Virus record (IMG/VR): IMGVR_UViG_3300037755_000799
Origin: an uncultured virus (IMG/VR IMGVR_UViG_3300037755_000799)
Taxonomy: Duplodnaviria; Heunggongvirae; Uroviricota; Caudoviricetes
Reading direction: 5' to 3' (one strand)
DNA length: 64,000 nucleotides
The translations under genes and the position numbers were made by a program. This document shows, in pieces, positions 2,966-59,533 of the stretch. The notes under the pieces are model-generated. The model was not told the origin of the DNA and made no database searches. It saw only the letters and a list, made by a program, of their open reading frames with translations. Every line of letters starts with the position of its first letter. Within the stretch, counting starts at the first letter, position 1.

Positions 2966-3034
2966 CCCACCGCCCGACAACAGCGCCCCGCCGACCCGAA
3001 TCCGGCGGGGCACCCACCACAAGGAGAACACCAA

Positions 3035-3721
3035 ATGATCAACCTCGCCAAGGTCGAACAGCAGGCCCCCGGCCTCGTCAACCTCGCCAAAACCGCCGCC
3101 GTGTCCCTGGAAAAGCAAGGCCTCGCCGGGCAGCGCGCAGCCGTCCAACTCGTCCTCGACCACTCCGGCAGCATGCACCCCTACTACAACAACGGCGCCG
3201 TCCAGCGCCTCGCCGAACAAGCCCTCGGCCTGTCCGTGAACCTGGACGACGACGGCGCCGTGCCCGTCATCTTCTTCGGCTCCCACGTCGAGCAGTACGA
3301 CGACGCCCGCCTCGACAACTACGCGGGGATCATCGACCGCACCCACCCCAAGGTCCACTGGGGCTCGACGGACTACGTCGCCGGAATGCAGGCCGCGATC
3401 ACCGAGTACCAGCAGTCCGGTGCCACCGATCCGGGCCTCGTCATCTTCCAGACGGACGGCGAGCCCGATGACCGTAAGGCCGTCGAGCGGCTGTTGCGGG
3501 AGGTGTCGACGCTGCCGATCTTTTGGGCGTTCGTCGGGTTCGGCGGGCGCGTCGACTTCTTGGAGAAGCTCGACGGCCTGCGCCGCCGGGCCGTCGACAA
3601 CGCGTCGTTCTTTCATGCCGCGAACCCGCACGCCGTCACCGACGCCCAGTTGTACGACGGCATCACCGCCGAGTTCGCCGGATGGCTGACTGCCGCGCGC
3701 ACGGCCGGGATCCTCCGCTGA
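3035..3721 (+). CDS. vWA-domain protein (TerF-associated vWA-like)
   Basis: MIDAS DHSGSM, TDY, FQTDG, PIFWAFVGFG, VDNASFF; AAGGAG RBS. Confidence 0.85.
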   Translation: MINLAKVEQQAPGLVNLAKTAAVSLEKQGLAGQRAAVQLVLDHSGSMHPYYNNGAVQRLAEQALGLSVNLDDDGAVPVIFFGSHVEQYDDARLDNYAGIIDRTHPKVHWGSTDYVAGMQAAITEYQQSGATDPGLVIFQTDGEPDDRKAVERLLREVSTLPIFWAFVGFGGRVDFLEKLDGLRRRAVDNASFFHAANPHAVTDAQLYDGITAEFAGWLTAARTAGILR

Positions 3722-3766
3722 CCCTCTGACCGGCGGCCGGCCCGCACCCCCACGCGCCGACCGCCA

Positions 3767-3851
3767 CCGGGAGCCCGCCACCTCCCCGGCGGGCTCCCGG
3801 ACCCCCAGCCACAGCAGCAGCACGAAGCCCCGCACCAGCACGGTGCGGGGC
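3767..3851. terminator. Two hairpins between convergent genes
   Basis: 13-bp stem at 3767-3800 and 10-bp stem at 3827-3851. Confidence 0.7.
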
Positions 3852-3876
3852 GAACGGAGAGGAGGACGAGGTGCGA

Positions 3877-4083
3877 TCAGGTATCGCTGAGTGCCACCCG
3901 CGCCCGCTCGTACCACTCGGGCGTGACGACGTACGCCCGGCGCTCGCCGCGCTCGGTGAACGCCGCGACTTGCGCGTCTTCCCTGACTCGCCGGATGAGG
4001 CGCGTGAGGTTCGCGCGGGCGTCGGTCATCGAGACCTCGGCGACGCCGTCCTCTGCGGTCTGGATGCCCTGCTCAACAGCCAT
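3877..4083 (-). CDS. Phd/YefM-like DNA-binding protein (orphan antitoxin-like)
   Basis: VSMTDARANLTRLIRRV...TERGERRAYVVTPEWYE; TACACT -10 lies 6 nt before ATG 4083 (likely leaderless). Confidence 0.8.
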   Translation of the reverse strand: MAVEQGIQTAEDGVAEVSMTDARANLTRLIRRVREDAQVAAFTERGERRAYVVTPEWYERARVALSDT

Positions 4084-6615: not shown

Positions 6616-6684
6616 AACGCCCCGGGCCGTCCACCGCGGGCGGCCCACCGCAGTCCTCAACCAGCACGATCGAAAGAAGTGCAG

Positions 6685-7653
6685 ATGCCCTGGGTCAAGC
6701 TCGACGACCGGTTCCCGTCGCACCGCAAGATCGCCTTGCTGTCCGACCGGGCGTTCCGGCTGCACATCTCCGCGATCTGCTGGTGCTCCGAAAACCTCAC
6801 GGACGGACGCATCACCGACCGCGAGTTGACTCTCGTCGCACACATCCGGGGCCTGAAGGCGACCGCGAAGCAGCTCGAAGACGCCGGCCTGTGGGACCGC
6901 ACCGACGACGGCTGGGCCATCCATGACTTCCTCGACTACAACCCGTCCCGCGACCAGGTGATCGCCGAGCGGAAGAAGAACGCCGAGCGGCAGGAGAAGT
7001 TCCGCCGCCGCAAGAACGGCAAGCCGGTCCCACCGGGCCCCGGCACCCCGTCAAGTAACGGCGTTAGTAACGGCGTTACGCGAACCGCAGAAACGCACGA
7101 CGGCGACACGAACGCAGCACGACGGCGACACGACGGCGACACGACGGCGACCGGAAACCGTCACGAATCTCAGACAGAACCGCAGGTCACAGAGATTCGT
7201 AACGGCGTTACTAACGGCGCCCCGTCCCGTCCCGTCCCGACCCCAACCCCTTCTATGGCTGATGTAGGTGGGGAAAGTGCCGGTAGTGAGGCGCCCGAGG
7301 CCGACGCTTTCGCGCCCTCCCCGATCGACATCGACGGCTTCCAACTCACCGACGCCATGCGCGCCTGGTCGCTGCGAACCTTCGGCCCCGGCCTCGACCT
7401 CGACTACGAGACCGCCCAGTTCCTCGACCACTTCCGCGCCCAAAACGTCCGCCGCCCCAACTGGCCGACCGAATGGCAGAAGTGGATCCGCCGCTCCGCG
7501 AAGTACGCGTCCGAGCGCGCCACCCGCCCCAGCACCAACGTCGTGCCCTTCACCCAGCCCCGCCCCTCCACCACCGACGCCCGCGTCCAAGCCGCCCTCG
7601 ACCTCGGCCGCCAAATGCAAGCCGAAGCCGACGCCGCCCAGGAGGCCCAGTGA
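6685..7653 (+). CDS. Phage replication initiator-like protein
   Basis: MPWVKLDDRFPSHRKI N-terminus, IHDFLDYNPS, ERQEKFRRR, C-terminal FLDHF..NW..W..WIRR; internal repeats. Confidence 0.75.
   Translation: MPWVKLDDRFPSHRKIALLSDRAFRLHISAICWCSENLTDGRITDRELTLVAHIRGLKATAKQLEDAGLWDRTDDGWAIHDFLDYNPSRDQVIAERKKNAERQEKFRRRKNGKPVPPGPGTPSSNGVSNGVTRTAETHDGDTNAARRRHDGDTTATGNRHESQTEPQVTEIRNGVTNGAPSRPVPTPTPSMADVGGESAGSEAPEADAFAPSPIDIDGFQLTDAMRAWSLRTFGPGLDLDYETAQFLDHFRAQNVRRPNWPTEWQKWIRRSAKYASERATRPSTNVVPFTQPRPSTTDARVQAALDLGRQMQAEADAAQEAQ
7056..7220. repeat. Iteron-like repeats (candidate replication origin)
   Basis: TAACGGCGTTA x3 plus a partial copy, flanking CACGACGGCGA x4. Confidence 0.75.
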
Positions 7654-17292: not shown

Positions 17293-17463
17293 GTGCAAGA
17301 GCGTAACGGCCAACCATCTGGCCAGCCCACCCCCGCGCCTCTCGCGCCACGCCCGAACCAGATCCTCGCCACCCCCGCCACCGTCGAGCAATGCCAAGCC
17401 GACTACCAGGCCGCCGAGGACGTACGCCGCGTCATGGACCAACAGGCCACCCAACGCCGCTGA
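17293..17463 (+). CDS. Small hypothetical protein (transfer module)
   Basis: GGAAGGA RBS before GTG; 56 aa open frame. Confidence 0.6.
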   Translation: MQERNGQPSGQPTPAPLAPRPNQILATPATVEQCQADYQAAEDVRRVMDQQATQRR

Positions 17464-17533
17464 CCCCCACACACCGCCGCGCCCCGGCACATCCCCCAGC
17501 CGGGGTGCGGCCACACATCCGATGGAGCACCCC

Positions 17534-17707
17534 ATGTGCCGTGACACCCGCACCACCGAACAAATCCAAAACGCCATCACCGCCGAGGCCACCCTCGCCC
17601 GCCAGATCGAAGACGACCCCATGTCCACCCCGCAGCAGCGCGACCTCGCCGACAAGCTCCACGAGCAGATGAACGCCGAACTGGAAACGCTCGACTGCCG
17701 CCGCTGA
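17534..17707 (+). CDS. Small hypothetical protein (transfer module)
   Basis: GGAG RBS; helical 57 aa. Confidence 0.65.
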   Translation: MCRDTRTTEQIQNAITAEATLARQIEDDPMSTPQQRDLADKLHEQMNAELETLDCRR

Positions 17708-17797
17708 CCGGTAGCCCTCGGCGCGCGTCCCCACCCGGTACGCGCGCCCTGGAGATCCGGCCAGACCCATCCGCCCCGACCACACCCGGAGACCGCA

Positions 17798-18037
17798 ATG
17801 CGAAGCCACCTGCTCCGCAACCTCCTCATCGGCGCCCTCCTCGTCCTCGCCGCCATGCACCCCGAAACCGCCAACACCATCGCGCAACTCGCCGCCGGGA
17901 TGGTCCTCGCCATCGTCACCGGCATCGCCGAAGCCGCCGCCCACCAGCCCGAGGCCGCGCTCCTCACCGCCGGCGCCTGCTACATCGCCCACCAGATCCG
18001 CACCCACCGCCCCCGCACCGCCCGCGCCCGCCACTAA
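17798..18037 (+). CDS. Small membrane protein (Spd-like)
   Basis: Mostly hydrophobic; upstream of FtsK/TraB gene. Confidence 0.7.
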   Translation: MRSHLLRNLLIGALLVLAAMHPETANTIAQLAAGMVLAIVTGIAEAAAHQPEAALLTAGACYIAHQIRTHRPRTARARH

Positions 18038-18052
18038 CCTCGGAGCCTCGAA

Positions 18053-18934
18053 ATGAACCGCGACGACCTCTACGCCCGCGCCACCGCAGTCATCGACGCC
18101 AAGCACGACAAGAGCACCGCCCGCAAACGCGGCGCCCTCGACACCGCCATCCTCGGCACCGTCCCCGTCCTCGCCGTCGCCGTAGCCTTCGCCTCCGGCT
18201 GGTCCCTCTACGACCTCGGCCGGCACTTCCACATGCCCGGCTGGGCCGCGTGGGCCGTGTTCGCGCTCATCGACGTCGTGTGGTTCCAGTCCGCGATCGT
18301 CGTCATCAAAAACCAGCAGTCACCACACCGGGCGATCGAAGCCCACAAGCGGATGCAAGGTATGTTCGCCGTGTCGGTCGCCGCGAACTTCGCCCACGGC
18401 CTGATCCTCTTCGGGGCCACCGTGAACGGGTTCGTTGCGGGCGCGGTGTTCGCGCTGTTCCCGATCGGGTTCAAGGCGGCGTTCTCCAACGCCTTCCCCG
18501 ACTACGTCAAGCGCGCCCGCAACGCCGGGTACGGGGGCGAACTGGAGAAGGCGTTCCACACCGAGGCGCTGATGTTCATCATGGCGGGCGTGGACCAGGT
18601 GAAGGCCGAACTCGGCCAAGCGCCGGACCGGCCGCAGGTCACCGTGGACCGCACACCGGACCGCCCCGAGTCCACGCTGGTTAAGCCTCCTGACCAGGCG
18701 GTGAACCAGATCGAGGCCATCCCTGAACCGGCCCCGGTTCAGCCGGTCCAGGCCGCGGTGAACCGGCCGGATCAGCCGGTTCAGATCGACGACCAGGTCA
18801 ACGAACTCCTTCGTCGTCTCAAGCTCGGCGAGCACATCACCAAGCCGACGGCAGCCAAGATCCTCGGCATCCCCGAGTCCACCGCGTACCGGCGTCTCAC
18901 TGCCGCCCAGGCGCTCCTGAACCAGTACCGCTGA
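18053..18934 (+). CDS. SpdB/DUF2637-like membrane protein with C-terminal HTH
   Basis: About 4 TM helices, SVAANFAH, Pro-rich linker, AAKILGIPESTAYRRL. Confidence 0.75.
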   Translation: MNRDDLYARATAVIDAKHDKSTARKRGALDTAILGTVPVLAVAVAFASGWSLYDLGRHFHMPGWAAWAVFALIDVVWFQSAIVVIKNQQSPHRAIEAHKRMQGMFAVSVAANFAHGLILFGATVNGFVAGAVFALFPIGFKAAFSNAFPDYVKRARNAGYGGELEKAFHTEALMFIMAGVDQVKAELGQAPDRPQVTVDRTPDRPESTLVKPPDQAVNQIEAIPEPAPVQPVQAAVNRPDQPVQIDDQVNELLRRLKLGEHITKPTAAKILGIPESTAYRRLTAAQALLNQYR

Positions 18935-18997
18935 CCGTCCGGCCGCCCCGGCCCCCGCTACACGCGGGGGCTCGCCTGTCTCTGCGGAGCCCCCACC

Positions 18998-20758
18998 GTG
19001 AAGATCGACCGCGTCGACATCATCACCGCCATCACCGTCCCCAGCATCGTCTCCGCAGCAGCCCTGACCGCCGACGGCGTCTACGGCACCACCGCAGCCG
19101 CCATCGAGTTCGGCACCGCCCTCGCGGCAGGGAAGCTGTCGTTCGTGTCCTTCGCGAAGAAGTGGCCAGCCTCGCTCGCCTGGGGCAGCCTCGCTCTCGC
19201 CGGCGTCTCCACGCAGGCGTGGCTCACCGGCACGGTCGGCGGGTTCGCCGCCCTGTACGGGTACGCCATCAGCGCGGCCGCCGTGTTCGGGGCGATGGTC
19301 AAGCACCGGCACGACGCCCGCCACGACCAGGTCAAGCTGGACCACGAGTCGGTGAAGCTGAACACCGCGCTTATCCGGCAGCAGATGGCCCACCATGCCC
19401 TGGTTCAGAAGACCGCGCCCGAACCAGTCCAGTCCGGACCGAACCTGACCGGCCGGACCGTGGAAGAAACGCGCCTGCGGACCGTGGTCCATGAACTGTT
19501 CACGGCCGAACTGCCGGGCTGCACCGTGGAACGGACCCGCACCGGCTGGACCGCCGTCCTGGACCTGCCGGTGAACCTGGACCGAAACAAGCTCAAGTCC
19601 GCCTGGCCCAGGGTCGCCTCGGGGATGGGCGTGGCCGGGGAGTTCATGCTGGAAGACGGGGCGCTCACGAACCAGCTCATCGCCCGGTTCATCGACGGCG
19701 ACCCCCTCGAAGCCGTGGTCCCGTACCAGCGGTTCACCGCAGGCCGGTTCACCGACCCGATCACGCTCGGCGTGGACCGGTTCCTGAACCCGGTCACCGT
19801 TGAACTGGCCTACGCCCACGCCCTCGTCGCTGGTTCATCCAAGTTCGGGAAGTCCACCCTGGTTCGGTCCATCGTCCTCCAGCTCGCGGACCGGCCCGAC
19901 ATCGTGGTCTACGGCGTCGACCTCAAACCGGGTGCGCCGGAGATGACGCCGATGCTGCCGATCCTCCAAGATCTCGCGCAGACCCCGGAGCAGGCGCACG
20001 CCTTCCTCGACTGGCTGAAGGCCGAGTTGCAGGAGCGCGGCGAGATCCTCGCCGCCGCTGGTGACCAGGAGTGGGACCCGGTCAAGCACGGTCGGCCTGC
20101 ACTGTGGGCGGTGTTCGACGAGCTGGGCGAGCTGGTCCGGCAGGCCGACGTGGGTGAGTGGAAGAGGGATCCGGCGTCGAAGAAGCTGGAATCTCTGCTC
20201 GCTTTGGCCCGGTTCGCGGGCATTCATCTGATCGCCGCCACCCAGCAGCCGTCCCGGAAAGTCTTCGGCGGGACCACCGACGCCCGCGGCAACTACAGCG
20301 TCCGCATCAGCACGCGCATGGCGGACCGCGACCACCGCCGGTTCATCTTCGGCACCACCCCCGGATGGGAACCCGGCGACCTCGACGCGCCCGGAAAGTT
20401 CCTCCTCCAGTCCCCGGACCACCAGCAGCCGGCCCCGTACAAGGGCATGTGGCTGACGAAGGACGAGTTCACGGCGGAGGTCGCCCGGATCGGCGCGGAT
20501 ACGGTGAAGGCGCCGGTGGGGAAGCGGCTGGTCCTGCCCGTCAGCGGGGGGACGAATCAGGACAAGGTGAGGGCCGCGCTGGCGAAGTACGGGAACTGCA
20601 CACGCCGCGAGCTGGAGGCCGCGACCGGGCTCACGGAGAAGCAGGTACTCGATGCGGCCCGTGCGCTCGGCCCGGAAGTGGAGCGCTGCGCCGACACCCA
20701 GACGTGGCGGATCCTGCCAGCGAAGGCGTGGGAGGCGCAGGCCATAGCGACGCAGTGA
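18998..20758 (+). CDS. traB: TraB-like FtsK/SpoIIIE DNA translocase
   Basis: N-terminal TM region; Walker A GSSKFGKST, DLKPG, Walker B AVFDELGEL, ATQQPS; C-terminal winged-helix-like TRRELEAATGLTEKQV. Confidence 0.8.
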   Translation: MKIDRVDIITAITVPSIVSAAALTADGVYGTTAAAIEFGTALAAGKLSFVSFAKKWPASLAWGSLALAGVSTQAWLTGTVGGFAALYGYAISAAAVFGAMVKHRHDARHDQVKLDHESVKLNTALIRQQMAHHALVQKTAPEPVQSGPNLTGRTVEETRLRTVVHELFTAELPGCTVERTRTGWTAVLDLPVNLDRNKLKSAWPRVASGMGVAGEFMLEDGALTNQLIARFIDGDPLEAVVPYQRFTAGRFTDPITLGVDRFLNPVTVELAYAHALVAGSSKFGKSTLVRSIVLQLADRPDIVVYGVDLKPGAPEMTPMLPILQDLAQTPEQAHAFLDWLKAELQERGEILAAAGDQEWDPVKHGRPALWAVFDELGELVRQADVGEWKRDPASKKLESLLALARFAGIHLIAATQQPSRKVFGGTTDARGNYSVRISTRMADRDHRRFIFGTTPGWEPGDLDAPGKFLLQSPDHQQPAPYKGMWLTKDEFTAEVARIGADTVKAPVGKRLVLPVSGGTNQDKVRAALAKYGNCTRRELEAATGLTEKQVLDAARALGPEVERCADTQTWRILPAKAWEAQAIATQ

Positions 20759-20960
20759 ACGTGCAGGTCAGCGGCCAGTTTCAGGGGGTCGGATAGGGGG
20801 TCGGCTCGGGGCGTGGTCACGGTCGGGTTGAGGGTCGGCCGCTCGCCCCGGGTTCCGACCCCGAACTCCCGGCCGGCCTGCCACACTGAGTCTGCGCGCC
20901 GGGTCACGCCCGGCACCCCCGAGGAGGCCTCGCTGTTCGTCCCCCCGACGGCGAGGCCTT
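20759..20960 (+). repeat. clt-like short repeats downstream of traB
   Basis: GGGGGTCGG x2, GGTCGGG, AGGGTCGG and inverted CCGACCCC. Confidence 0.5.
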
Positions 20961-21031
20961 CGCCTGTTTCCGCCCGCACTGTCGGTGCCGGCCGCTACGA
21001 TCCGGCGCATCATCACGTCCTTGGGGGGACC

Positions 21032-21373
21032 ATGCGCCGTACCGCTACCGTCGTGTTCGCTGTCGTCGCGCTCGCACTCGCGGGCTGCTCCTCGGGCGGT
21101 GAGGATGATCCCCCGAAGACCGTCACGGTCACTGCGTCGCCGTCGTTGTCTGAGGCTGAGGCGCGGCAGGCGTGCGTGGACGAGTGGCTGGTGGTGCTTC
21201 AGGAGACGCCGGATGATGCGCCGGATGTGGAGGATAAGCCTGCCGTGTGCGAGGGGTTGTCGGGGCAGGCGGCGATGTACGCGGAGGCGCTGATGGCGCG
21301 GAATCAGGCGAACCGGGATAAGCATGATGCGTGCACGAGGGACCCCGCATGCACGAGCTGGCCGGCGCCGTAG
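21032..21373 (+). CDS. Lipoprotein
   Basis: MRR + hydrophobic stretch + LAGC lipobox. Confidence 0.85.
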   Translation: MRRTATVVFAVVALALAGCSSGGEDDPPKTVTVTASPSLSEAEARQACVDEWLVVLQETPDDAPDVEDKPAVCEGLSGQAAMYAEALMARNQANRDKHDACTRDPACTSWPAP

Positions 21374-21424
21374 CCGTACACGAGTTGGCCCCGCTCCGGG
21401 AACTGTCCGGGCGCGGGGCCTTCG

Positions 21425-21829
21425 TCATGCGGCGGGTGCGTCGGTTGGTAGGCGCCAGCAGGCGTCCGTGCACGCATCACCATCATGCGGATAGCCCTGC
21501 TGATCGAGGTCGTCGAATTCCGCCGTCCGCATAGCAGCGAGACACCACTCGCCCTTGTCCGTGAGCCACGCCCCGTTCTGGCTCGATCCGTGCTCGATCA
21601 GCCCGGCTCGGTCCATGGCGCCGAGGACGATGTGGTGCGCGCCGGGGATGTTCCCGGTCAAGCTCTCGGCGGTCTTCCAGCGGGAGTCTTCGTAGAGGGG
21701 TGCGAGGCTGAGGAGGTCGCGGATGAGGTCGTAGGCGGCTTCGGGGTTGCCGCATCCGCAGAGGCCGAGTCCTTGGGTGTTGTCGTAGAAGATGACGTAG
21801 AGGTGGGAGAGGACGTCGTCGCGGCTCAC
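21425..21829 (-). CDS. Hypothetical protein
   Basis: GAGGAG RBS; LCGCGNP, LIEHGSS..GAWLTDKG. Confidence 0.75.
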   Translation of the reverse strand: MSRDDVLSHLYVIFYDNTQGLGLCGCGNPEAAYDLIRDLLSLAPLYEDSRWKTAESLTGNIPGAHHIVLGAMDRAGLIEHGSSQNGAWLTDKGEWCLAAMRTAEFDDLDQQGYPHDGDACTDACWRLPTDAPAA

Positions 21830-22098
21830 GTGGTGGTCTCCTCGCCCGGACGCACCGGGCCCGCGCCCCGTCCTTCGTATGTGCAGACGGGGCAGATGCC
21901 CTTGGAGACGCCCGGCTTCCCAGCGGGAATCGAACTCGGCTTGCCGTTGACAGACCTCCACTCGTGGCCGCCCATCTCGTGTCCGCACAGCGAGCACGGG
22001 AGCCAGAAGTACCCGCCAACGAAGGCATACGCCCGATGCACTTGGCGCGGTAGGAGAGAGATCTTGCCGCGCGCTTCGCGGAGCTGGATAAGGCTCAT
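21826..22098 (-). CDS. Cys-containing hypothetical protein
   Basis: GYFWLPCSLCG...ICPVC; GAGGAG RBS. Confidence 0.7.
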   Translation of the reverse strand: MSLIQLREARGKISLLPRQVHRAYAFVGGYFWLPCSLCGHEMGGHEWRSVNGKPSSIPAGKPGVSKGICPVCTYEGRGAGPVRPGEETTT

Positions 22099-22117
22099 GT
22101 GCTCGTCTCCTCGCTGC

Positions 22118-22549
22118 TCACCAGGCGCGCCGTGGCACGTCGCTGTCTGACGCCATCCGTCGCCGCCGCTCATCGGCCTCATCCTGCTCCCGCATCCACG
22201 CGGCTTCCTTCTGCCGCTCAGCCGCGATGAACTCCGGCACACCAGGCAACGACTGAAACCCCGGGTCGGAGAACACCGGCACCAGGCCGCCGCACTGCAC
22301 GGGGCCGTTCATGAAGTACAGCTGGTTGTGCCCGATGTCGCCGCGCGCGTAGTCGATTCCGTCAGGCACGATGATGTGCACCGCGTTCGCCCCGCACTCC
22401 CCGCCGAGCGTGAAGTCGCGGGTGGCGGTGAGCCACGTCCACCGGGACCACGGGTAGTCGTAGGCGTGCGTGGGTGGCCGGCAGGGCGTGAGCCAGGCGC
22501 GTAGCCAGGTCAGGTATTCGTCGATGGTGGCGGGGCGTAGGGCGCTCAT
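22118..22549 (-). CDS. Hypothetical protein
   Basis: ATGA overlap; GAGGAG RBS. Confidence 0.75.
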   Translation of the reverse strand: MSALRPATIDEYLTWLRAWLTPCRPPTHAYDYPWSRWTWLTATRDFTLGGECGANAVHIIVPDGIDYARGDIGHNQLYFMNGPVQCGGLVPVFSDPGFQSLPGVPEFIAAERQKEAAWMREQDEADERRRRMASDSDVPRRAW

Positions 22550-22785
22550 CCGGTCTGCTCCTCGCCGGTCGTCGGGCGCGGCCGGAACGCGGCGAGCAGG
22601 GACCTGCCCATCGCTTCCAACTGCGGGCGCAGCGCTTCACCCATACCCTCCACGCCCGCCATGACGTGCTGCTCGAACGGCGAGAGCGGACGCCCCGAAC
22701 CGTCCGGCAGTGGAGGGGTCTCGTCGTCGTGGCGCTCGATCTGGTGACGGGCGCGGGTCGGGTTGGGGTACGGGCGGTAGCTCAT
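22546..22785 (-). CDS. Hypothetical protein
   Basis: MSYRPYPN start; coupled. Confidence 0.7.
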   Translation of the reverse strand: MSYRPYPNPTRARHQIERHDDETPPLPDGSGRPLSPFEQHVMAGVEGMGEALRPQLEAMGRSLLAAFRPRPTTGEEQTG

Positions 22786-23279
22786 GTGCTCGTCTCCTCG
22801 CTGCTCACCGGACGCGCCGGCAGGGCTTTGCGTAGTTCCTCGATCAGCGCGCGCGTGACGTGCCCGCGCCGCGCCTGATCGGCCCGTGACCGCTTTGCGG
22901 CACCGAGCCGGGCATCGCGTTCAGCCGTGAGGCCGCGCCCCCAAAGCTGCCGTGCCTTGGTGTCCACGTCCACGGGATCGGCGTTCAGACGCTGTGCTGC
23001 CTTCACCGTCGCCTCGTCCGGGCCAGCCTTCACCGGGCTCTGCGTCGGGAGGCCGCTCAGCAGTTCCTCCAACTGGACGCCAAGCACGTACGGCAGCACC
23101 ACCAGTTCGTGAGCCTTGACGCTGCGTTGGCCGTTCTCTGTGACGCCCACGCTCACGCGGCTGGTGGCCACGCCGTACTGCGCGAGCCGATGGGCGACCT
23201 CTTCATGGGTGAGCCCTTGCTTCTGCCGAAGCTCGCGGATACGGCGGCCGAGGGCAGCGTCGAAGGTGCGCTTGCTCAT
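22782..23279 (-). CDS. XRE-family HTH regulator
   Basis: LGRRIRELRQKQGLTHEEVA...ENGQRSV. Confidence 0.85.
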   Translation of the reverse strand: MSKRTFDAALGRRIRELRQKQGLTHEEVAHRLAQYGVATSRVSVGVTENGQRSVKAHELVVLPYVLGVQLEELLSGLPTQSPVKAGPDEATVKAAQRLNADPVDVDTKARQLWGRGLTAERDARLGAAKRSRADQARRGHVTRALIEELRKALPARPVSSEETST

Positions 23280-27629: not shown

Positions 27630-28313
27630 GTGGTCAAACGTACCTGCGACGTGCCTGAATGCAACAGACCACACTCCAGCAAGGGGTACTGCGCGCCGCA
27701 CTATGCCCGCTGGAAGCGGACAGGACGACCGGGCACGGCCCAAGTAGCCGCACCGAGCCGGGGAGGCGCCTGCTCAGTCCAGGGATGCGACCGTCAGCGT
27801 AAAGCTCGCGGGTATTGCCAGCAGCACTACAACCGATGGGCAAGCAGTGGCGACCCCGGCCCTGTCACGATCCGCGCCAAAGGCGACTCCAGGACCCGTG
27901 ATGCGCAGGGGCGGAAGCGGTGCACCAAGTGCGAGGAGTGGCGCTCCGTACGCGACTTCCGGAGCGGGCCCCGGGCGGCGGACAAGCTGAGCTCCCACTG
28001 CTACCGCTGCCACCGCGCCGGGGTGCTGCGCCGCACCTACGGCGTCACAATCGAGTGGTACGAGAAGACTCTGGCAGAACAAGGCGGCCTCTGCGCACTG
28101 TGCTCGAAGGCGAACCGAGACGGTCGCATGCTCGCGGTCGACCACGATCACACCTGCTGCGCTGGCCGTAAATCATGCGGCAACTGCGCGAGAGCGCTCC
28201 TTTGTACCCGCTGCAACACCGGGCTCGGAGCGTTCGGCGATGATACGGCGCTCATGGCTGCGGCCATTGAGTACGTGACCACGCGGAAGGCGCGGCGTGA
28301 CGGCTCCCCCTGA
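27630..28313 (+). CDS. Endonuclease VII-domain homing endonuclease-like protein
   Basis: Two CxxxxC..GYC..HY Zn modules; YGVT, QGGLCALC, AVDHDH, LLCTRCNTGLGAFGDD. Confidence 0.88.
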   Translation: MVKRTCDVPECNRPHSSKGYCAPHYARWKRTGRPGTAQVAAPSRGGACSVQGCDRQRKARGYCQQHYNRWASSGDPGPVTIRAKGDSRTRDAQGRKRCTKCEEWRSVRDFRSGPRAADKLSSHCYRCHRAGVLRRTYGVTIEWYEKTLAEQGGLCALCSKANRDGRMLAVDHDHTCCAGRKSCGNCARALLCTRCNTGLGAFGDDTALMAAAIEYVTTRKARRDGSP

Positions 28314-29634
28314 TCTCATCCACCGGTACGAACCCCGGGGTGCGGCACTGGAGCTGATGCGGTGTCGCAACCCTGAGGTGCTCCTGAGCGGGCCAGCGGG
28401 GACGGGCAAGAGCCGGGCTTGCTTGGAGAAGCTGCATCTGATGTCGCTGGTGAACGCGGGGATGAGGGGGCTCATCGTCCGTAAGACTCGCGAGTCTCTG
28501 GGCTCGACGGCCCTGGTGACGTATCGGGAGCACGTTGCCCAAGAGGCTTTGGCCAGTGGACTGGTGTCTTTTTATGGCGGGTCGGCTCAGGAGCCGCCGC
28601 AGTACCGGTACAGCAACGGCTCAAAGATCATGATCGGGGGGATGGACAAACCTACCAAGATCATGTCATCTGAGTACGATGCCGCCTACGTCCAGGAAGC
28701 CATCGAGCTGACCACCACCGACTGGGAGAACATCACCACGCGCCTCAGGAATGGCGCCGTGAGCTTCCAGCAGCTCCTCGCAGACTGCAACCCGGACATG
28801 CCCAGTCACTGGCTGCACCAGCGCTGCGTACGCGGTACGACCCAGATGCTCGACTGCCGCCACGAAGACAATCCCGTCCTCTACAGCGCCGACGGCACCC
28901 TCACTGAGCGCGGCAAGGACTACATCAGCAAGCTCGACGCGCTCACTGGCGTCCGTTATCAGCGCCTCCGGCTGGGCCGATGGGCGGCAGCGGAAGGTCA
29001 GGTCTATGAGGCGTGGAACCCGGCCGTCCATCTGATCGACCCCATCCGCCTGCCGCAGGAGTGGACCAGATGGATCTCGATCGACTTCGGGTACACGGCG
29101 CCCTTCTGTGCCCAGTGGTGGGCCGAAGACGGGGACGGCAGGCTCTACTTGTACAGGGAGCTGTACGCCACTCGCGGTCTGGTTGAAGACCATGCCCGCC
29201 ACATGCTGGAGCTGATGAAGTACCCGTCGGGGCAGTGGCGGGAGCCGCAGCCGCGCGCGGTGATCTGTGACCACGACGCGGAGGACCGGGCGACGCTGGA
29301 GAGGCACCTCGGGTTGGGCACGGTGGCCGCGAAGAAGTCCGTCAGCGACGGCATCCAGGCGGTGCAGTCGCGCCTGAAAGTCCAACCGGATGGGAAGCCT
29401 CGGCTGTTCATCTTCCGTGATGCCCTAGTGAAGGCTGACCCGGAGCTGGAGGACGCGAAGAAGCCGACGTGCTCCGTCGACGAGATCACAGGCTACGTGT
29501 GGGCCGTAAAGCCTGGTGCGTCGGGCGATCTGAAGGAGGCGCCGGTGAAGGAAAACGATCATGGCATGGACACGATGCGCTACGCCGTCGCAGCCCGCGA
29601 CCTGGTCGGCCGGACCCGGGTGCGCTGGCTGTGA
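28297..29634 (+). CDS. terL: Terminase large subunit
   Basis: SGPAGTGKS, YVQEAIE, DCNP, SIDFGY, DHGMDTMRY. Confidence 0.95.
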   Translation: MTAPPDLIHRYEPRGAALELMRCRNPEVLLSGPAGTGKSRACLEKLHLMSLVNAGMRGLIVRKTRESLGSTALVTYREHVAQEALASGLVSFYGGSAQEPPQYRYSNGSKIMIGGMDKPTKIMSSEYDAAYVQEAIELTTTDWENITTRLRNGAVSFQQLLADCNPDMPSHWLHQRCVRGTTQMLDCRHEDNPVLYSADGTLTERGKDYISKLDALTGVRYQRLRLGRWAAAEGQVYEAWNPAVHLIDPIRLPQEWTRWISIDFGYTAPFCAQWWAEDGDGRLYLYRELYATRGLVEDHARHMLELMKYPSGQWREPQPRAVICDHDAEDRATLERHLGLGTVAAKKSVSDGIQAVQSRLKVQPDGKPRLFIFRDALVKADPELEDAKKPTCSVDEITGYVWAVKPGASGDLKEAPVKENDHGMDTMRYAVAARDLVGRTRVRWL

Positions 29635-29713: not shown

Positions 29714-29938
29714 GTGAAAAAGACCATCGCCCGACTCGCCGCGGTCCGACCACGCCTCACCACGGCCGCCACCGCCGTCGCGGCAGCCCGAGCCGGCCTG
29801 TACACCACTGGCGGTCTCGCCTGCGGCACCGCATCCGCCTGGGTTACTTGGGGTGTCGGCGCCGGCCTCGCCGGAGCATCCGTGTCGCTGCTGCTGATGG
29901 GTGTCCTGTCTGACAATGAGAAGGGGGCGGTCCGGTGA
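29714..29938 (+). CDS. Small membrane protein preceding portal
   Basis: GGAGG RBS; hydrophobic; coupled to portal. Confidence 0.75.
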   Translation: MKKTIARLAAVRPRLTTAATAVAAARAGLYTTGGLACGTASAWVTWGVGAGLAGASVSLLLMGVLSDNEKGAVR

Positions 29939-32073
29939 GGTCTCTACGTGCGTTGAGGAATAAGACGCCGGTGCCGTACGTGTCGTCGCGTGGCGGGCTG
30001 TCGATTCCGTGGCGGGCACCGTCCGGGGCTGAGGCGCAGATGCGGGCGATGGGGACGGTGGGAACCCTGTTCTCCATCGTCAACCGCACCAGCAACGCGA
30101 CGGCGCTCGTCGACTGGAAGCTGCTCCGCAAAGCCCCGTCAGGCAAGCTGGAGGACCGGGTTGAGGTCACCTCCCACGCGATCCTCGACCTGTGGAACAA
30201 GCCGAACCGGTTCTTCACCCGGCAAGAGTTGGTCGAGACGGTGCAGCAGCACATCGACCTCACGGGTGAGGGCTGGCTCGTCATCGGCCGGAATCCGCGC
30301 TCGCCGATGCCGCTGGAGTTGTGGCCGGTGCGCCCGGACCGTATCCAGCCGGTGCCGCACCCGGTGGATTTCATCTCCGGCTACCTGTACACCGGCCCGG
30401 ACGGGCGTGAGATCGCGCTGCGTGTCGAGGACGTCATTCAGATCCGGATGCCCAACCCGCTGGACCCGTACCGGGGGATGGGGCCGGTGCAGTCGATCCT
30501 CACCGAACTCGACGCGAGCAGGTACTCGGCTGAGTGGAACCGCAACTTCTTCATGAACAGTGCGGAGCCCGGCGGGATCATCGAACTCCCCTCCGTCCTC
30601 TCCGACCCCGAATGGGACCAGCTCCAAGCCCGCTGGAACGAACAGCACAAGGGCGTCGCCAACGCTCACCGGGTTGCGTTCATCGAGCACGGGCAGTGGA
30701 AGGACCGCAAGTACACGCAGCGGGACATGCAGTTCGCTGAGCTCCGGTCGGTGTCCCGGGACGTGATCCGCGAATCCTTTGGCGCGCCGGCGTTCGTGCT
30801 GGGTGAGGTCGGTGACGTCAACCGGGCGACGGCTGATGCGTCGAAGGTGCTGTTCGCGGAGCAGTTGACGGTGCCGCGCTTGGAGCGTTTCAAGCAGGCG
30901 TTGAACAACGACCTGTTGCCCCTGTACGGCAAGGATGCGGCACGGCTGCTGGAGTTCGACTACTGCGACCCGGTACCCCCGGATGCTGCCGCGCGCAACG
31001 AGGAGCTGACCGCGAAGTCGGCTGCCTATGCCGAGTTCATCGGGGCCGGGGCGGATCCGCGTCTGGTCGCCGAGTATCTCGACTTGCCCGAGTTTGCTGG
31101 GGACGCGGACCGGGATCTGCTGGTGCGGATTGTGACGGGTGCGCCGTCGACGGCGCCGATGATTCTGCCGCTGCTGGGTTTCGACGTCCCGGAGCCGGCT
31201 GCTCCCGCCCCCGCGGTCGCTGCTGTGCCTGTGCAGCAGCCGGCGGCCCGTCTGGACTTGCATCACCATGTGCCGTTCGCGTTGCCCGCCGGGCGGCCGT
31301 CGTACAACCGGGTGTTGGAGCGCGGCGGGGTGCGTGCGCAGGCTGATGACGATGCGTTGGACGCGGTGCGGGTCCAGTTCGAGGAGGCGCTCGCTGGACT
31401 GTTGGAGGCGTGGGAGCCGATCGCGGAGGCGCAGTACGCGGCGGTGGAGGAGCAGATCGCCGCCGCCGTGGATGCTGGGGATACGGAGGCGTTGGCCACG
31501 CTTGTCGTGGACGCGGATGAGGGTGCGCGGGTGCTGCGGCTGGCGCTCGGGGAGATGGCGGAGACGGCGGCCGGGCAGATGGCGGAGGAGGCTGCCGAGC
31601 AGGGTGTGAAGGTGCGTCCGCCGAGGGTGGACAAGGGGCTGCGGAATGCGTTCGGGTCGGAGTTGATTGAGATTGCTGTGGCGACGGCGGCGTTGTTGGC
31701 GGCGGATGTGGCGGGGTCGGCGGGTCGTGAGGCGCTGCGGCTACTCACTCCTGGTGCGGTGGGGCGTGAGGTCGCCTCGCAGGTGGGCGGGTTCCTGCGC
31801 GGGTTGAAGAACTGGTTCCGGCGGGATCAGTTGGGTGGTGCGTTGCATCGGGCGCAGAACACGGCCCGGGTGGCGACGTTGGCCGCTGCGCCTACCGCCC
31901 GGATTTTTGCTAGCGAGCGGAACGATCGCAACACGTGCGGCCCGTGTAAGGAGATCGACGGGCACGAGTTCGACGACTTGGATGCGGTGCGGGCTGCGTA
32001 TGGTGCGGGCGGCTATCTGCGGTGCGAGGGCGGCGTGCGCTGCCGAGGAACCGTGACGGCCCGCTGGGAGTGA
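29935..32073 (+). CDS. HK97-type portal fused to head-morphogenesis (MuF-like) domain
   Basis: LWNKPN, LTGEGW, LWPVRPDR, YRGMGPV, FFMNSAEPGG; C-terminal D.NTCGPC..IDG...RCRG. Confidence 0.9.
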   Translation: MRSLRALRNKTPVPYVSSRGGLSIPWRAPSGAEAQMRAMGTVGTLFSIVNRTSNATALVDWKLLRKAPSGKLEDRVEVTSHAILDLWNKPNRFFTRQELVETVQQHIDLTGEGWLVIGRNPRSPMPLELWPVRPDRIQPVPHPVDFISGYLYTGPDGREIALRVEDVIQIRMPNPLDPYRGMGPVQSILTELDASRYSAEWNRNFFMNSAEPGGIIELPSVLSDPEWDQLQARWNEQHKGVANAHRVAFIEHGQWKDRKYTQRDMQFAELRSVSRDVIRESFGAPAFVLGEVGDVNRATADASKVLFAEQLTVPRLERFKQALNNDLLPLYGKDAARLLEFDYCDPVPPDAAARNEELTAKSAAYAEFIGAGADPRLVAEYLDLPEFAGDADRDLLVRIVTGAPSTAPMILPLLGFDVPEPAAPAPAVAAVPVQQPAARLDLHHHVPFALPAGRPSYNRVLERGGVRAQADDDALDAVRVQFEEALAGLLEAWEPIAEAQYAAVEEQIAAAVDAGDTEALATLVVDADEGARVLRLALGEMAETAAGQMAEEAAEQGVKVRPPRVDKGLRNAFGSELIEIAVATAALLAADVAGSAGREALRLLTPGAVGREVASQVGGFLRGLKNWFRRDQLGGALHRAQNTARVATLAAAPTARIFASERNDRNTCGPCKEIDGHEFDDLDAVRAAYGAGGYLRCEGGVRCRGTVTARWE

Positions 32074-38645: not shown

Positions 38646-40073
38646 ATGAGCCACACGCGGCGATCGTGGAATACCGCCACCCCCGAAACCATCGCCGAAC
38701 GCGGACGAGCCATGCGACCCACACTCCCGACACCCGACGGCGAACAGACCTGGTACCGCATCCGCAACGCCCTCGACGAAGGCGGCACCCCATACGCATC
38801 CATCTCTGTCTATGGGGACATCGGTTCATGGGGAATTACGGCCGCGTCCTTCATGGAGGAGCTGAAGGCCGTCGACGCGCCAGAGATCAGATTGTCCATT
38901 TCGTCCCCTGGGGGAGACCTCTTCGACGGGCTGGCGATACACAATGCCCTTCGCTCCCACCGGGCGAAGGTCGTGGTGCAAGTCGACGCGCTCGCCGCGT
39001 CGATCGCCTCTGTGATCGCAATGGCCGGGGACCGGATCATCGCTGCTCCGCACAGTCAATTCATGATCCACAACGCGGCCGGAGTAGCCGCAGGCGAAGC
39101 CACCGAGCTCCGCGAGTACGCCGACTTCCTCGACAAGCAGTCCGAGAACATCGCCGGGGTCTATGCAGAACGCGCAGGCGGCACCGTCAAGCACTGGCTC
39201 CGCCTCATGGCGGCAGAGACCTGGTTCTTCGCCGACGAAGCGGTAGAGGCCGGGCTCGCCGATGAGGTCGGCAAGCCGATGCGGCGCGACGACGAAGAGA
39301 TGATGCCCGACGACCGGGCGATGGCCGCCGCGTGGGACCTCAGCGTCTACAACTACGCGCACACCAGCCGCGAGACCGCACCCGCGCCCGAGACCGCACC
39401 CGCGACCGTCGAACCCCCCGCCGCACCCGCGCCCACTGCGGCTCCCGTCTTCGACCCGTCCGTGTTCCGGGCCGCCACCACCGCAGCGCTCGACCCGATG
39501 CCCGGCTACCAGCCCGAGCACCTCCGCTCGCTGATGGCCGGAGTCGCCGGTGACGCCCCCGCCGCACCCGCACCCGTACGCCAAGCCGCCCCGTACGTGC
39601 CCCCGCCCACGGACGTCGTGCCCGAACCCGACGAGCAGACCGTGGCCGCCGGCTACTTCCGCTCCCTCATGGCGGGTGTGGCGGGTGACGCACCGGCCGT
39701 ACCCGCCCCGCGGCAGGATCCGGTCCCGTATGTGCCGCCGCCTGTAGACGTCGTGCCTGAGGCGGATCCGCAGACGGTGGCGGTCGGCTACTTCCGGTCC
39801 CTGTTCGCTGGGGTCGCCAACGATGCTCCGGCAGCCCCGCAGCCGGAGCGCCCGGCACCGGCCGTGCACGCCCCGGCTGCGGCCGTCGTGCCCGAACCGC
39901 CGCCGCCTGCCGGGCAGGTGGTGGCCGACTACCTGCGCGCCGTCATGACTGGTGTCGCCAACGACGCCCCCGCACCACCCCAGGCCGCCGTGCCCGAGCC
40001 GACCACGCCGGAGCCGGTCCAAGCGATCGACCAATCAGCAGTACGACGTGCCCTTTGGGAGGCAGAGCTATGA
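38646..40073 (+). CDS. ClpP-like head maturation protease with repetitive C-terminal extension
   Basis: SSPGGDLFDG, LAASIASVIAMAGD, FMIHN, ETWFFADEAVEAGLAD. Confidence 0.92.
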   Translation: MSHTRRSWNTATPETIAERGRAMRPTLPTPDGEQTWYRIRNALDEGGTPYASISVYGDIGSWGITAASFMEELKAVDAPEIRLSISSPGGDLFDGLAIHNALRSHRAKVVVQVDALAASIASVIAMAGDRIIAAPHSQFMIHNAAGVAAGEATELREYADFLDKQSENIAGVYAERAGGTVKHWLRLMAAETWFFADEAVEAGLADEVGKPMRRDDEEMMPDDRAMAAAWDLSVYNYAHTSRETAPAPETAPATVEPPAAPAPTAAPVFDPSVFRAATTAALDPMPGYQPEHLRSLMAGVAGDAPAAPAPVRQAAPYVPPPTDVVPEPDEQTVAAGYFRSLMAGVAGDAPAVPAPRQDPVPYVPPPVDVVPEADPQTVAVGYFRSLFAGVANDAPAAPQPERPAPAVHAPAAAVVPEPPPPAGQVVADYLRAVMTGVANDAPAPPQAAVPEPTTPEPVQAIDQSAVRRALWEAEL

Positions 40074-41569
40074 CCGCAACCGCTACCCGGGGGCGCGCCG
40101 ACATCATCTCCGGCATGCGCCACCGCATGATCCTCCGCGCCGGATTCGACCCGCGCCAGATCGGCAAGGCGTACAACCGCGTCGCCGAACCGCCGGCGCC
40201 GGCCGGAGGGGTGGACCCCGACCGTCTCACCATCCCCACCAACCAGGCCGCGCTGGAGGAGATGCTGACCGACTCGGCGAAGATGCAGCGCGTCTTCGCG
40301 CAGCCGGAAGCCTTCGGCGAGTTCATCACCAACTACGCCCGCAACACCCACGCCCGCGACCTCAGCATTGCGACGCAGGTCAAGGAGCAGACGGAGCAGA
40401 TCCTCGCGAACTGGCTGCGCGACAACCAGCCCGACGGTGTGGAGCGGATCGACCTGACTCCGCAGGCCGTCGTCAAGACTGGCAATGCCCGCAACCATCT
40501 GCACAACCCGCGGGCGATGGGTGCGGTCCTGGACCGCGAGTTCAAGAACAGCGCGGAGTATTTCCAGACGATCTGGCACAACGCGAACCGCACGGCGGAC
40601 ATGCAGGCGAAGCTGACCCGCGTCCGCAACGCGTTCTCCAGCACGGTGCCGTCGGAGGGCGGGTTCCTCATTCCTGAGGTCCTGCGTTCGGAGCTCCTCG
40701 CGGTGGCGCTGGAGCAGTCCGTTGTCCGGCAGCGGGCCCGCATCATCCCCATGGAGACGTTGCGGGTTCCGTTCCCTGCGATCGACGCCACCTCCAACGT
40801 GTCCAGCGTGTACGGCGGTGTGGTCGGCTACTGGACCGAAGAGGGGGCGGCGCTCACCGCGTCGCAGGCCGCGTTCTCCCGGATCGTCCTCGATGCGAAG
40901 AAGCTCACCGCGTACACCGAGGTCCCCAACGAACTCATCTCCGACAGCGCCATCTCGTTCCAGGCGTTCCTCGACCAGATCTTCCCCGAGGCCCTCAACT
41001 TCTACGAGGACATCGCCTTCTTGAAGGGGAGCGGCGTCGGCGAGCCGCTGGGCGCGCTCGCCGCGGGCAACGCCGCGATCGTCTCCGTCGCCAAGGAGTC
41101 CAGCCAGGCTGCGGACACGATCGTGTGGGAAAACATCGTCAAGATGTACAGCAGGATGTTGCCCGGCAGCCTGGACCGGGCGGTGTGGATCGTCTCCCCG
41201 GATGTGTTCCCGGAGCTGGCCACCATGGCTCTCAGCGTGGGCACCGGGGGTTCGGCGATCTGGCTGAACAACGGTGTCGGCGGCCCGCCGATGACGATCC
41301 TGGGACGGCCGGTCATCGTGTCGGAGAAGGCACCGGGAACGCTCGGCGACCTCGGCGACATCAGCTTCGTCGACTTCGGGTTCTACCTGATCGGCGACCG
41401 GCAGGTCATGTCCGCCATGTCGTCGCCGCACTTCAAGTTCCAGAACGACCAGACGGCGTACAGGATCATCCAGCGCGTCGACGGCCGCCCGTGGCTCCAG
41501 TCCGCGATCACGCCACAGAACAACAGCGACTCGCTTTCACCTTTCGTCCAGTTGGCAGCGCGCGCCTGA
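40070..41569 (+). CDS. HK97-fold major capsid protein
   Basis: EGGFLIPE, WTEEG, KKLTAY, TILGRPV, GDISFVDF..Y.IGDR, RVDG. Confidence 0.95.
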   Translation: MTATATRGRADIISGMRHRMILRAGFDPRQIGKAYNRVAEPPAPAGGVDPDRLTIPTNQAALEEMLTDSAKMQRVFAQPEAFGEFITNYARNTHARDLSIATQVKEQTEQILANWLRDNQPDGVERIDLTPQAVVKTGNARNHLHNPRAMGAVLDREFKNSAEYFQTIWHNANRTADMQAKLTRVRNAFSSTVPSEGGFLIPEVLRSELLAVALEQSVVRQRARIIPMETLRVPFPAIDATSNVSSVYGGVVGYWTEEGAALTASQAAFSRIVLDAKKLTAYTEVPNELISDSAISFQAFLDQIFPEALNFYEDIAFLKGSGVGEPLGALAAGNAAIVSVAKESSQAADTIVWENIVKMYSRMLPGSLDRAVWIVSPDVFPELATMALSVGTGGSAIWLNNGVGGPPMTILGRPVIVSEKAPGTLGDLGDISFVDFGFYLIGDRQVMSAMSSPHFKFQNDQTAYRIIQRVDGRPWLQSAITPQNNSDSLSPFVQLAARA

Positions 41570-58597: not shown

Positions 58598-59533
58598 GTG
58601 GCCACACCACCAGGCGCGGCGAGGTTCGCGCAGTTGTTCCGCGATGAGGGTCTGACCGTTGTCGAGGTCGGCGACTGGCGCCACCACAACCGTAACCATG
58701 TCGGTGCGTGGGGTCCGGTGCACGGCGTGATGATCCACCACACCGTCACCTCCGGCTCGGCTCGCACCGTGCAGATCTGCCGCGATGGATACGTGAAGCT
58801 CCCCGGACCTTTGTGCCACGGCGTGATCACCAAGGACGGCCGCGTGCATCTGGTCGGCTACGGGCGCACCAACCACGCCGGCTCCGGTGACCCTGACGTC
58901 CTGGCCGCGGTCATCGCCGAGCGCGCACTGCCCGCGGACAACGAGGCGAACACCGACGGCAACGCCCGCTTCTACGGCTTCGAGTGCGAGAACCTCGGCG
59001 ACGGCCGCGACCCGTGGCCGGAAGCCCAGTTGGAGGCCATCGAGAAGGTGTCCGCGGCGATCTGCCGGCATCACGACTGGGGCGCGGGCTCGGTGATCGG
59101 GCACTTGGAGTGGCAGCCGGGGAAGGTCGATCCGCGCGGTTTCTCCATGCAGACGATGCGCGGCCGTATCGCGGCACGTCTCGACGGCAACCAGCAGCAA
59201 GAGGAGGACGACATGCAGCTCGACGACGAGGTGAAGCTGAACCAGTGGATACTGGACCGCTGGCCGGATGATCTGGGGATTCAGGACGGCAGCATCCTGG
59301 TGCGCACCGCGCTCGGCTCCGGGTACGCGCACGCCCGTACAGCATCGACGCTCGCCCGGGTGGCCGCCTCCAACAGCGAGAAGATCCTCACCCAGTTGGC
59401 CGCGCAGGGTTCGGTTGCGCTGACGGACGCACAGCTGGCCGTACTCGCCGACAAGGTGGCCGCGCACCCGGTGCTGGCGGAGCAGATCGCGGAGCGGGTG
59501 GCTGCGAAGCTCGCGGAGAGGCTCGCCGAGTGA
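58598..59533 (+). CDS. Endolysin, N-acetylmuramoyl-L-alanine amidase
   Basis: GVMIHHT, PGPLCH, NHAG, YGFECEN, IGHLEW..GKVDP. Confidence 0.93.
   Translation: MATPPGAARFAQLFRDEGLTVVEVGDWRHHNRNHVGAWGPVHGVMIHHTVTSGSARTVQICRDGYVKLPGPLCHGVITKDGRVHLVGYGRTNHAGSGDPDVLAAVIAERALPADNEANTDGNARFYGFECENLGDGRDPWPEAQLEAIEKVSAAICRHHDWGAGSVIGHLEWQPGKVDPRGFSMQTMRGRIAARLDGNQQQEEDDMQLDDEVKLNQWILDRWPDDLGIQDGSILVRTALGSGYAHARTASTLARVAASNSEKILTQLAAQGSVALTDAQLAVLADKVAAHPVLAEQIAERVAAKLAERLAE

Follow-up and report, generated by a model that had tools for sequence, protein, structure and literature searches.

Why would a piece of protein-coding phage DNA be packed with copies of a single short word? This question is raised by the window analyzed here, a 64,000-nucleotide stretch from an uncultured virus of the Caudoviricetes (IMG/VR record IMGVR_UViG_3300037755_000799), in which a dense array of TGRACC and its complement GGTYCA lies within two neighboring genes: gene A, encoding a membrane protein with a predicted C-terminal helix-turn-helix (HTH), and a traB-like gene (hereafter traB), encoding an FtsK/SpoIIIE-type DNA pump. 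An earlier note on this DNA had counted 13 copies of TGAACC/GGTTCA and 10 of TGGACC/GGTCCA within about 1.3 kb, and our recount of positions 18590-19872 returned exactly these numbers (6 TGAACC, 7 GGTTCA, 7 TGGACC and 3 GGTCCA, 23 in total); both strings quoted in that note are present as well. We found that the array is real and far above chance, under DNA-level constraint, conserved, and independent of the recognition helix of TraB. As to its role, we see an even chance that it would be a centromere-like docking field for the HTH of protein A, holding the phage DNA beside the pump.

The whole window holds 106 copies of TGRACC/GGTYCA, corresponding to about 1.3 per kb outside the array. When the window was divided into 1-kb bins, 18001-19000 and 19001-20000 contained 11 and 14 copies, respectively, and the remaining 62 bins contained 0 to 4. 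An unbiased k-mer contrast of 18560-19900 with the remaining window returned TGAACC/GGTTCA as the top 6-mer (13 seen versus 0.76 expected) and TGAACCGG as the top 8-mer (6 seen versus 0.10 expected). The extended site consensus was SSTGRACC(R)G(S).

Such words might have no function at the DNA level and arise as a by-product from codon bias together with repeated peptides (VDQ, VNQ and PVQ; LDR, FLNP and the like). We analyzed this by synonymous shuffles that preserve protein sequence and codon usage (2,000 per test). Shuffled versions of gene A held 4.0 ± 1.4 copies versus 11 observed, and those of traB 7.1 ± 1.9 (within-gene codon usage) or 5.7 ± 1.9 (window codon usage) versus 15 observed; in neither gene did a single one of the 2,000 shuffles reach the observed count. 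This comparison had been set beforehand as the one that could overturn the claim of an array, and the enrichment stayed. The shuffle means of 4 to 7 copies nevertheless lie above the genomic background, indicating that the amino acid sequence itself supplies part of the excess. Likewise in favor of a by-product, rare codons were not significantly enriched inside the sites (5/50 versus 46/797, p = 0.22), and the impression of GTT, GGT and TCA usage gained by eye did not survive. Against it stands the arrangement of the sites, which are found on either strand, are not confined to one codon phase and cross the gene boundary.

The location of the array, over the linker of gene A and the 5' half of traB, and its crossing of the gene boundary were thus as the earlier note had described them; its continuity was not. 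The sites fall into two sub-arrays (Table 1), separated by a gap of 420 bp that comprises the HTH-coding part of gene A, a 63-bp spacer and the transmembrane (TM)-coding part of traB, with a sole site at 18918.

Protein A has hydrophobic segments at residues 28-46, 67-85, 104-122 and 117-144. Its match to DUF2637 (Pfam PF10935) scored 20.4 bits, under the gathering threshold of 22.8, and the homologue in locus L007 scored 16.7 bits. An AlphaFold2 (AF2) model built on a 58-sequence alignment predicts helices over residues 3-188, disorder over 189-241 (predicted local distance difference test score [pLDDT] below 50 over 193-239) and three helices over 242-292 with pLDDT of about 97. In this model, the disordered linker coincides with the position of sub-array 1. 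For the C terminus, every score against Pfam HTH_23, Xre-like-HTH and Sigma70_r4_2 was below cutoff, and the local Foldseek matches of the model (44-48 columns), all to HTH domains, were nonsignificant. Nearly all of the 145 homologues of protein A are annotated as hypothetical, and a search of 72,556 plasmid records gave zero matches.

The motor of TraB was recognized by Pfam FtsK_SpoIIIE (E 3.3e-14, 53.3 bits versus a cutoff of 24) and by PDB profiles of the coupling protein 6o1w (E 2.6e-14) and of FtsK 2ius (E 2.6e-10). Hydrophobic segments at residues 6-24 and 83-101 (hydropathy scan, mean of at least 1.7) are consistent with an N-terminal membrane domain. The protein does not belong to the curated plasmid TraB family NCBIfam NF041214, scoring 34.7 bits versus a cutoff of 800, and we call it TraB-like because of the gene architecture. 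Pfam returned nothing for its last 100 residues. The nearest plasmid relatives share 36-38% identity over 61% of the length, and the nearest named phage homologue, that of Gilgamesh, 32.5% over 63%. A close relative (E <= 1e-80) was present in only 2 of 401 sampled Streptomyces genomes. The nearest plasmid relatives (PLSDB H41-H45) lie on Streptomyces replicons of about 130 kb, and the genome of Gilgamesh measures 129 kb; these plasmids may be phage-plasmids.

To follow the array in relatives, we collected 15 viral and 12 genomic loci through the TraB protein, with later additions through alignment and through the TraB of locus L027, and compared them over traB and roughly 4 kb of flanking DNA on either side. 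Some entries are duplicates: L012 is the record G001, an IMG/VR virus sequence of 59,443 bp that has direct terminal repeats and is 100% identical to the window over 18000-20800; L014/L023 and L008/L026 gave identical values; and L031, L032 and L041-L043 are re-fetches. Site density in the homologous zone was 10.8-19.2 per kb for 24 of the 27 loci, versus 0.6-2.8 outside the zone, the exceptions being L010 (3.8), L027 (0.0) and L028 (0.8). In a codon alignment of 22 loci that carry this word, 10 of the 15 traB sites of the window were shared, column for column, by at least 17 of the 21 others. Identity at synonymous third positions was 0.87 in sites versus 0.72 across the gene, and 0.86 versus 0.76 within +300 to +900, a comparison that is not an independent-sample statistic because the loci are related. 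This better conservation of synonymous positions in the words also speaks against a by-product of the peptides. One locus, L018, a 4,552-bp contig labeled as a Gemmatimonadales metagenome-assembled genome, carries the module with 75% TraB identity and a full array; it is probably a misbinned short contig.

The relatives differ in the word itself. Besides TGRACC/GGTYCA (M1), de novo k-mer contrasts identified GTCCGGAC (M2) in the A linker of L010, L027, L033 and L037 and CTGAGCC/GCTCAGC (M3) in that of L028, L030, L034 and L035, and no array in L029. M2 was also found within traB of L010, L027, L028, L033, L035 and L037. In all six tests of M2 and M3 arrays in gene A, the observed count was above that of every one of the 2,000 synonymous shuffles. 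Distances between M3 sites are 21, 42, 63 and 84 bp, multiples of 21 bp, and those between M2 sites about 10, 21, 31 and 42 bp, multiples of about 10.5 bp; since this spacing follows the helical repeat, the sites would lie on one face of the helix. The linker peptide switches wholly with the word class while its position is kept (VDR/VNQ/PVQ, then SPD/RPD, then AEP/AQ/GLS). Because the peptide changes completely with the word, it seems to be the DNA word that dictates the linker peptide, and not the reverse. Together with the helical spacing, this makes a by-product without DNA-level function extremely improbable in our view. L007 adds a fourth word class, with 7 ACCGCGG/CCGCGGT word hits (4 sites) versus 0.08 expected; the palindrome ACCGCGGT is locally enriched at the TM-coding start of traB in L007 (+93 to +553), in L010 (-180 to +192) and in L028.

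Which protein would read these words? The earlier note had named either the membrane-HTH protein or TraB and had proposed that motifs in homologous modules be compared with the HTH. This comparison favored the former. The C-terminal domains of protein A fall into three classes, and in the 330 nt upstream, in which the words were counted, H1 (...ILG(I/V)(P/S)xSTAYRRL..., 22 loci) goes with 4-8 cognate M1 copies and 0-1 noncognate ones, H2 (...RLRPDLxxDS(I/V)RRxAxR..., 4 loci) with 4-7 M2 and 0-1 noncognate, and H3 (...ATAKRYLRE..., 4 loci) with 5-9 M3 and 0-2 noncognate. For all 30 membrane-HTH genes, the word class of the array thus equaled the class of the A C-terminal domain. Within traB, the 22 H1 loci hold 9-16 M1 sites and the H2 loci 3-5 M2 sites. 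L010, in which an H1-like HTH appeared beside M2 sites, was considered as a counterexample and dismissed, since mapping of its open reading frames (ORFs) placed an entire H2-type gene A at 2295-3218, with a linker that contains six TCCGGA. A separate gene (about 3400-3945) follows, which encodes a T5orf172 domain and the additional H1-like HTH, and traB of L010 holds both M2 and M1 sites. In three H3 loci (L028 2559-3941, L030 and L034), the membrane domain of A is separated from the linker plus HTH by an inserted T5orf172/MUG113 (GIY-YIG-like) domain; the Pfam scores for this domain were 32.7 and 38.4 bits versus a cutoff of 22.3.

A comparison of L027 (H2/M2) with L035 (H3/M3) revealed how the classes are exchanged. 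The membrane domain of A is 67-95% identical per 60-nt window (at least 80% in 12 of 14 windows), identity drops to 52-58% from -340 to -60 and then rises to 97% from -40 onward. A cassette of about 300 bp was thus swapped between loci that are otherwise 80-97% identical, with breakpoints exactly where the linker begins and just past the stop codon of A. Array and C-terminal domain thus travel as one cassette.

The same data leave room for another reader encoded elsewhere (a host factor, or a phage protein acting in partition, in replication or on the nucleoid), with the match to A reflecting linkage. Array and HTH adjoin each other physically, less than 100 bp apart, and there are just three independent classes, so that linkage alone could yield the class match; moreover, the comparison in relatives reached about 4 kb to either side of traB. 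The exact placement of the cassette breakpoints at the linker start and just past the A stop is less easily explained in this way. In addition, the two flanking ORFs (Table 1) gave no DNA-binding candidate, the predicted replication initiator is 11 kb distant, and some 22 kb separate the array from the ends of the G001 record, which argues against a packaging site. We consider such a reader rather improbable. Packaging-site and replication-origin readings of the array were set aside on position only, i.e., on these distances from the G001 ends and from the initiator.

We then considered TraB itself. The array adjoins and enters traB, and plasmid clt loci are 7- to 9-bp repeats near or overlapping tra genes (PMC3583192, PMC4447253), so that the array might be a clt read by TraB, as in pSVH1, pJV1 and pWTY27. 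The last 65 or so residues of TraB, however, come in four helix types that follow a different set of words, located within 130 bp past the traB stop. KQVLDA(A/T)RAL is accompanied by TCCGACC (1-4 copies, 14/14 loci), RQVLKA(I/L)(E/D)GL by GGGACC (14/14 loci), KQVRDAAGAL by TCCACCC (2/2 loci) and KQVLRACQEM by two copies of GCGAGACCC (1/1 locus). Helix type and 7- to 8-mer matched in 31 of 31 loci, with cross-hits in 3/28 and an expected background of 0.04-0.12 copies per 130 bp. This set leaves aside L005, L011, L017 and L036 (truncated upstream), the duplicates L012, L023 and L026, L001 (the stretch from G001, identical to the window) and the re-fetches. Both main helix types (KQVLDA(A/T)RAL and RQVLKA(I/L)(E/D)GL) were found with M1, M2 and M3 arrays, and thus the recognition domain of TraB does not follow the array. 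Like the A cassette, TraB helix and clt-like cluster were exchanged together between L027 and L035 (+1640 to +1940). By covariation, the C-terminal domain of TraB is a candidate reader of the clt-like words. We thus rejected TraB as the array reader on the missing covariation and consider a TraB-read array very unlikely; the part of the earlier suggestion that named TraB fell, and the part that named the membrane-HTH protein gained from the class match and the cassette swap.

In favor of TraB as the reader, the CCGG-containing core is similar to the word of pSVH1, reportedly GACCCGGA; a text search for that word gave unrelated papers. About 15 bp past the clt-like cluster, a box CTGCCACACTG (20878-20888) is visible, as it is after clt in many relatives; it could act as a promoter element or an additional site, and its one copy in the window is not above chance there.

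We thus hypothesize that the 23 or so sites (consensus TGRACC(R)G) would be bound by the HTH of many membrane-anchored copies of protein A, which would fix this 1.3-kb part of the genome at the membrane where TraB inserts. TraB would then recognize its own label, the TCCGACCC repeats of the clt-like cluster (20785-20862) about 0.9 kb beyond the array, and pump the double-stranded DNA (dsDNA) phage genome into neighboring hyphal compartments or hyphae, like Streptomyces plasmids with TraB and Spd proteins. This docking field is favored over an array read by TraB because the reader-site pair of TraB is accounted for elsewhere, by clt. Three steps of this hypothesis are inferred: binding of the array by A, anchoring of the DNA to the membrane through this binding, and movement of phage DNA by the module.

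Several observations weigh against docking by protein A, among them the share of the amino acid sequence in the excess and the lack of a rare-codon signal given above. The full A (H1) model had 0 Foldseek matches at E <= 0.001. The H2-class C-terminal domain, modeled as four helices with pLDDT of about 85, had neither a Pfam match nor a Foldseek match at that threshold; its role as a DNA-binding domain is not demonstrable from family or fold, which also favors a reader encoded elsewhere. The spacing of M1 sites is irregular. The M2 sites within traB of L027 are only modestly enriched (5 versus 1.8; 31 of 2,000 shuffles), and traB of H3 loci holds 0-1 cognate M3 sites and has retained 0-3 M2 sites, which may be relics of a recent cassette replacement. 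Finally, linkage alone could yield the class match, and the cassette swap shows co-inheritance, not recognition.

If A does bind the array, it might do so as a repressor, the sites acting as an operator or roadblock that silences or meters gene A and traB. The evidence for A as the reader, i.e., the class match and the cassette, serves this explanation equally. The sites lie within and just upstream of traB, and traB and traR of most plasmids are described as a kil-kor pair in which unregulated traB is toxic (PMC4447253). However, the known Kor/TraR repressors act at promoters and not at 20 or more intragenic sites (PMC4170104, PMC4447253). A repressor needs no membrane anchor, and the H3 loci lack an array of cognate sites in traB. 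Overlap of operator and promoter cannot be shown, as a scan of 17400-21600 returned 0 sigma-70-like promoters. Repression is in our estimate unlikely.

Anchor proteins that bind clusters of many short sites are known from several systems. In sporulating B. subtilis (Bacillus subtilis), RacA/ram works together with SpoIIIE; this system, ParB/parS and the omega-heptad centromeres bring DNA to a membrane or pole, where it is segregated or handed to a pump of the FtsK type. Unlike the module described here, these systems involve unrelated proteins, their sites are mostly intergenic or spread over tens of kb, and none is known as a phage module. KOPS and SRS, words of 8 bp, are recognized by FtsK/SpoIIIE through its C-terminal winged helix, the gamma domain (PMC4170104, PMC4447253). 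KOPS are strand-polar and genome-wide, whereas the phage array is local, has both orientations, and its word is at background elsewhere.

Plasmid clt loci resemble the array in being short repeats of 7-9 bp that adjoin or overlap a gene for an FtsK-like protein of dsDNA transfer, and their repeats are described as being read by a DNA-binding domain with lineage-specific specificity (PMC3583192, PMC4447253). They differ in size and setting: 4-9 repeats in 50-175 bp of mostly noncoding DNA, compared to two genes whose coding DNA carries about 23 sites within 1.3 kb. Unlike clt, the array does not covary with the TraB helix, and the separate, canonical-looking clt-like cluster does.

SpdA2 of pIJ101 is closer to gene A in one respect. 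This DNA-binding protein of the spread/transfer region binds palindromes inside its own gene, encoding a repeated peptide SRDD/E (PMC4170104), and gene A likewise holds the sites inside the coding sequence of its putative reader. The plasmid element (sps) is one conserved 12-bp palindrome present in 1-3 copies in many plasmids, whereas the phage has 8 + 14 sites of a word that switches between lineages. SpdA proteins are small (117-163 amino acids [aa]) and soluble and bind DNA with the N terminus, and protein A (293 aa, membrane-anchored, C-terminal HTH) is set apart by size and architecture. The sps palindrome CGTCACGTGACG had 0 copies in the window with 0-1 mismatch, and 3 with 2 mismatches versus 11.3 expected. 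SpdB2 of pSVH1 is an integral membrane protein of a transfer module that binds dsDNA and TraB (PMC4170104, PMC4447253), but its DNA binding is reported to be nonspecific, and the plasmid records searched above contained no A-like sequence. A literature search, mostly at the level of abstracts, found no description of such phage arrays or of this membrane-HTH family. Repeat-type clt loci and SpdA/sps are already known from Streptomyces plasmids, and this case would add two reader-site pairs that are separated by covariation.

For transfer, Streptomyces plasmids use one FtsK-like pump that moves them as dsDNA; delivery of the DNA to this pump and its spread through the hyphae are poorly understood. 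Tentatively, and with more doubt than confidence, we suggest that the locus could be a two-key, capsid-independent DNA-spread module of temperate Streptomyces phages, in which key 1 would be the tether with its array (three classes) and key 2 the TraB pump with its clt (four classes); exchange of cassettes could privatize the machinery among related phages, comparable to incompatibility or partition specificity in plasmids, and the phage genome could spread through the mycelium as naked dsDNA in addition to its spread in virions. If the docking reading is right, it would give three interchangeable protein-site classes and thus a natural, sequence-defined system for membrane tethering during translocation, and would be evidence for conjugation-type spread by phages. 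It would also be a clear case of a regulatory or structural DNA code laid over a protein code and dictating the amino acids of a linker. The correspondence of TraB helices and words also offers a ready, testable specificity code.

Table 1. Coordinates of the array, its genes and further features of the window
Feature	Position	Strand or orientation	Description
Gene A	18053..18934	+	293 aa; high-GC3 ORF; membrane protein, C-terminal HTH predicted
Sub-array 1	18591..18784	both orientations	8 TGRACC/GGTYCA sites in gene A linker-coding DNA
A disordered linker, coding region	18617..18775	+	residues 189-241; peptide VDR, PDR, VNQ, PVQ...
Perfect dyad in sub-array 1	18723..18742		CTGAACCGG-CC-CCGGTTCAG
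A C-terminal tri-helical HTH, coding region	18776..18931	+	recognition region ...AAKILGIPESTAYRRL...; proposed array reader
traB-like gene	18998..20758	+	586 aa; FtsK/SpoIIIE-type dsDNA translocase, hydrophobic N terminus, C-terminal recognition domain
Sub-array 2	19338..19871		14 TGRACC/GGTYCA sites; traB codons ~113-290, between TM region and Walker A GSSKFGKST
Lone GGTTCA site	20340..20345	-	traB motor region; kept in 19/21 M1 relatives
clt-like cluster	20785..20862		3' of traB stop; GGGGTCGGA (20785-20793) and degenerate copies, facing TCCGACCCC (20854-20862); proposed TraB site
Replication initiator (predicted)	6679..7653		PHROGs; 11 kb from the array
Upstream flanking ORF	17798..18037		79 aa
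Downstream flanking ORF	20813..21373
Large terminase	28297..29634		Pfam
Portal	29935..32073		Pfam
Major capsid	40055..41569		Pfam
Amidase lysin	58598..59533		Pfam

The setting of the module is that of a tailed phage or prophage with a GC content of 0.64-0.73. Besides the structural and lysis genes listed in Table 1, a Pfam scan of 37 window ORFs identified two DNA methyltransferases and one HNH-helicase. Relatives of the module are embedded in large Streptomyces contigs, with prophages in several Streptomyces genomes, and since they sit within such contigs the phage lineage is temperate. At the DNA level, the region matched none of 50,697 phage records. Of the flanking ORFs, neither had a PHROG or Pfam match; the upstream one had a single NCBIfam match below cutoff, which is irrelevant, and the downstream one two such matches, neither to a DNA-binding family. 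In the 17400-21600 region, a terminator scan returned 1 terminator-like site versus 1.7 expected.

In the spacer between gene A and traB (18930-19000), an 8-bp GC hairpin GCCCCCGC...GCGGGGGC was spotted by eye; its folding energy was no better than that of shuffles (z = -0.93). The 24 sequencing-run rows associated with the sequence are soil and sediment metagenomes, RNA rows hold just 0.05 of the words, and these rows support no claim on expression or habitat. Downstream of the module, a 40-nt direct repeat occurs at 22093-22132, 22544-22583 and 22780-22819 in copies that are 70-95% identical. The repeats mark the starts of successive small genes on the minus strand and may represent a repeated translation-initiation or regulatory region.

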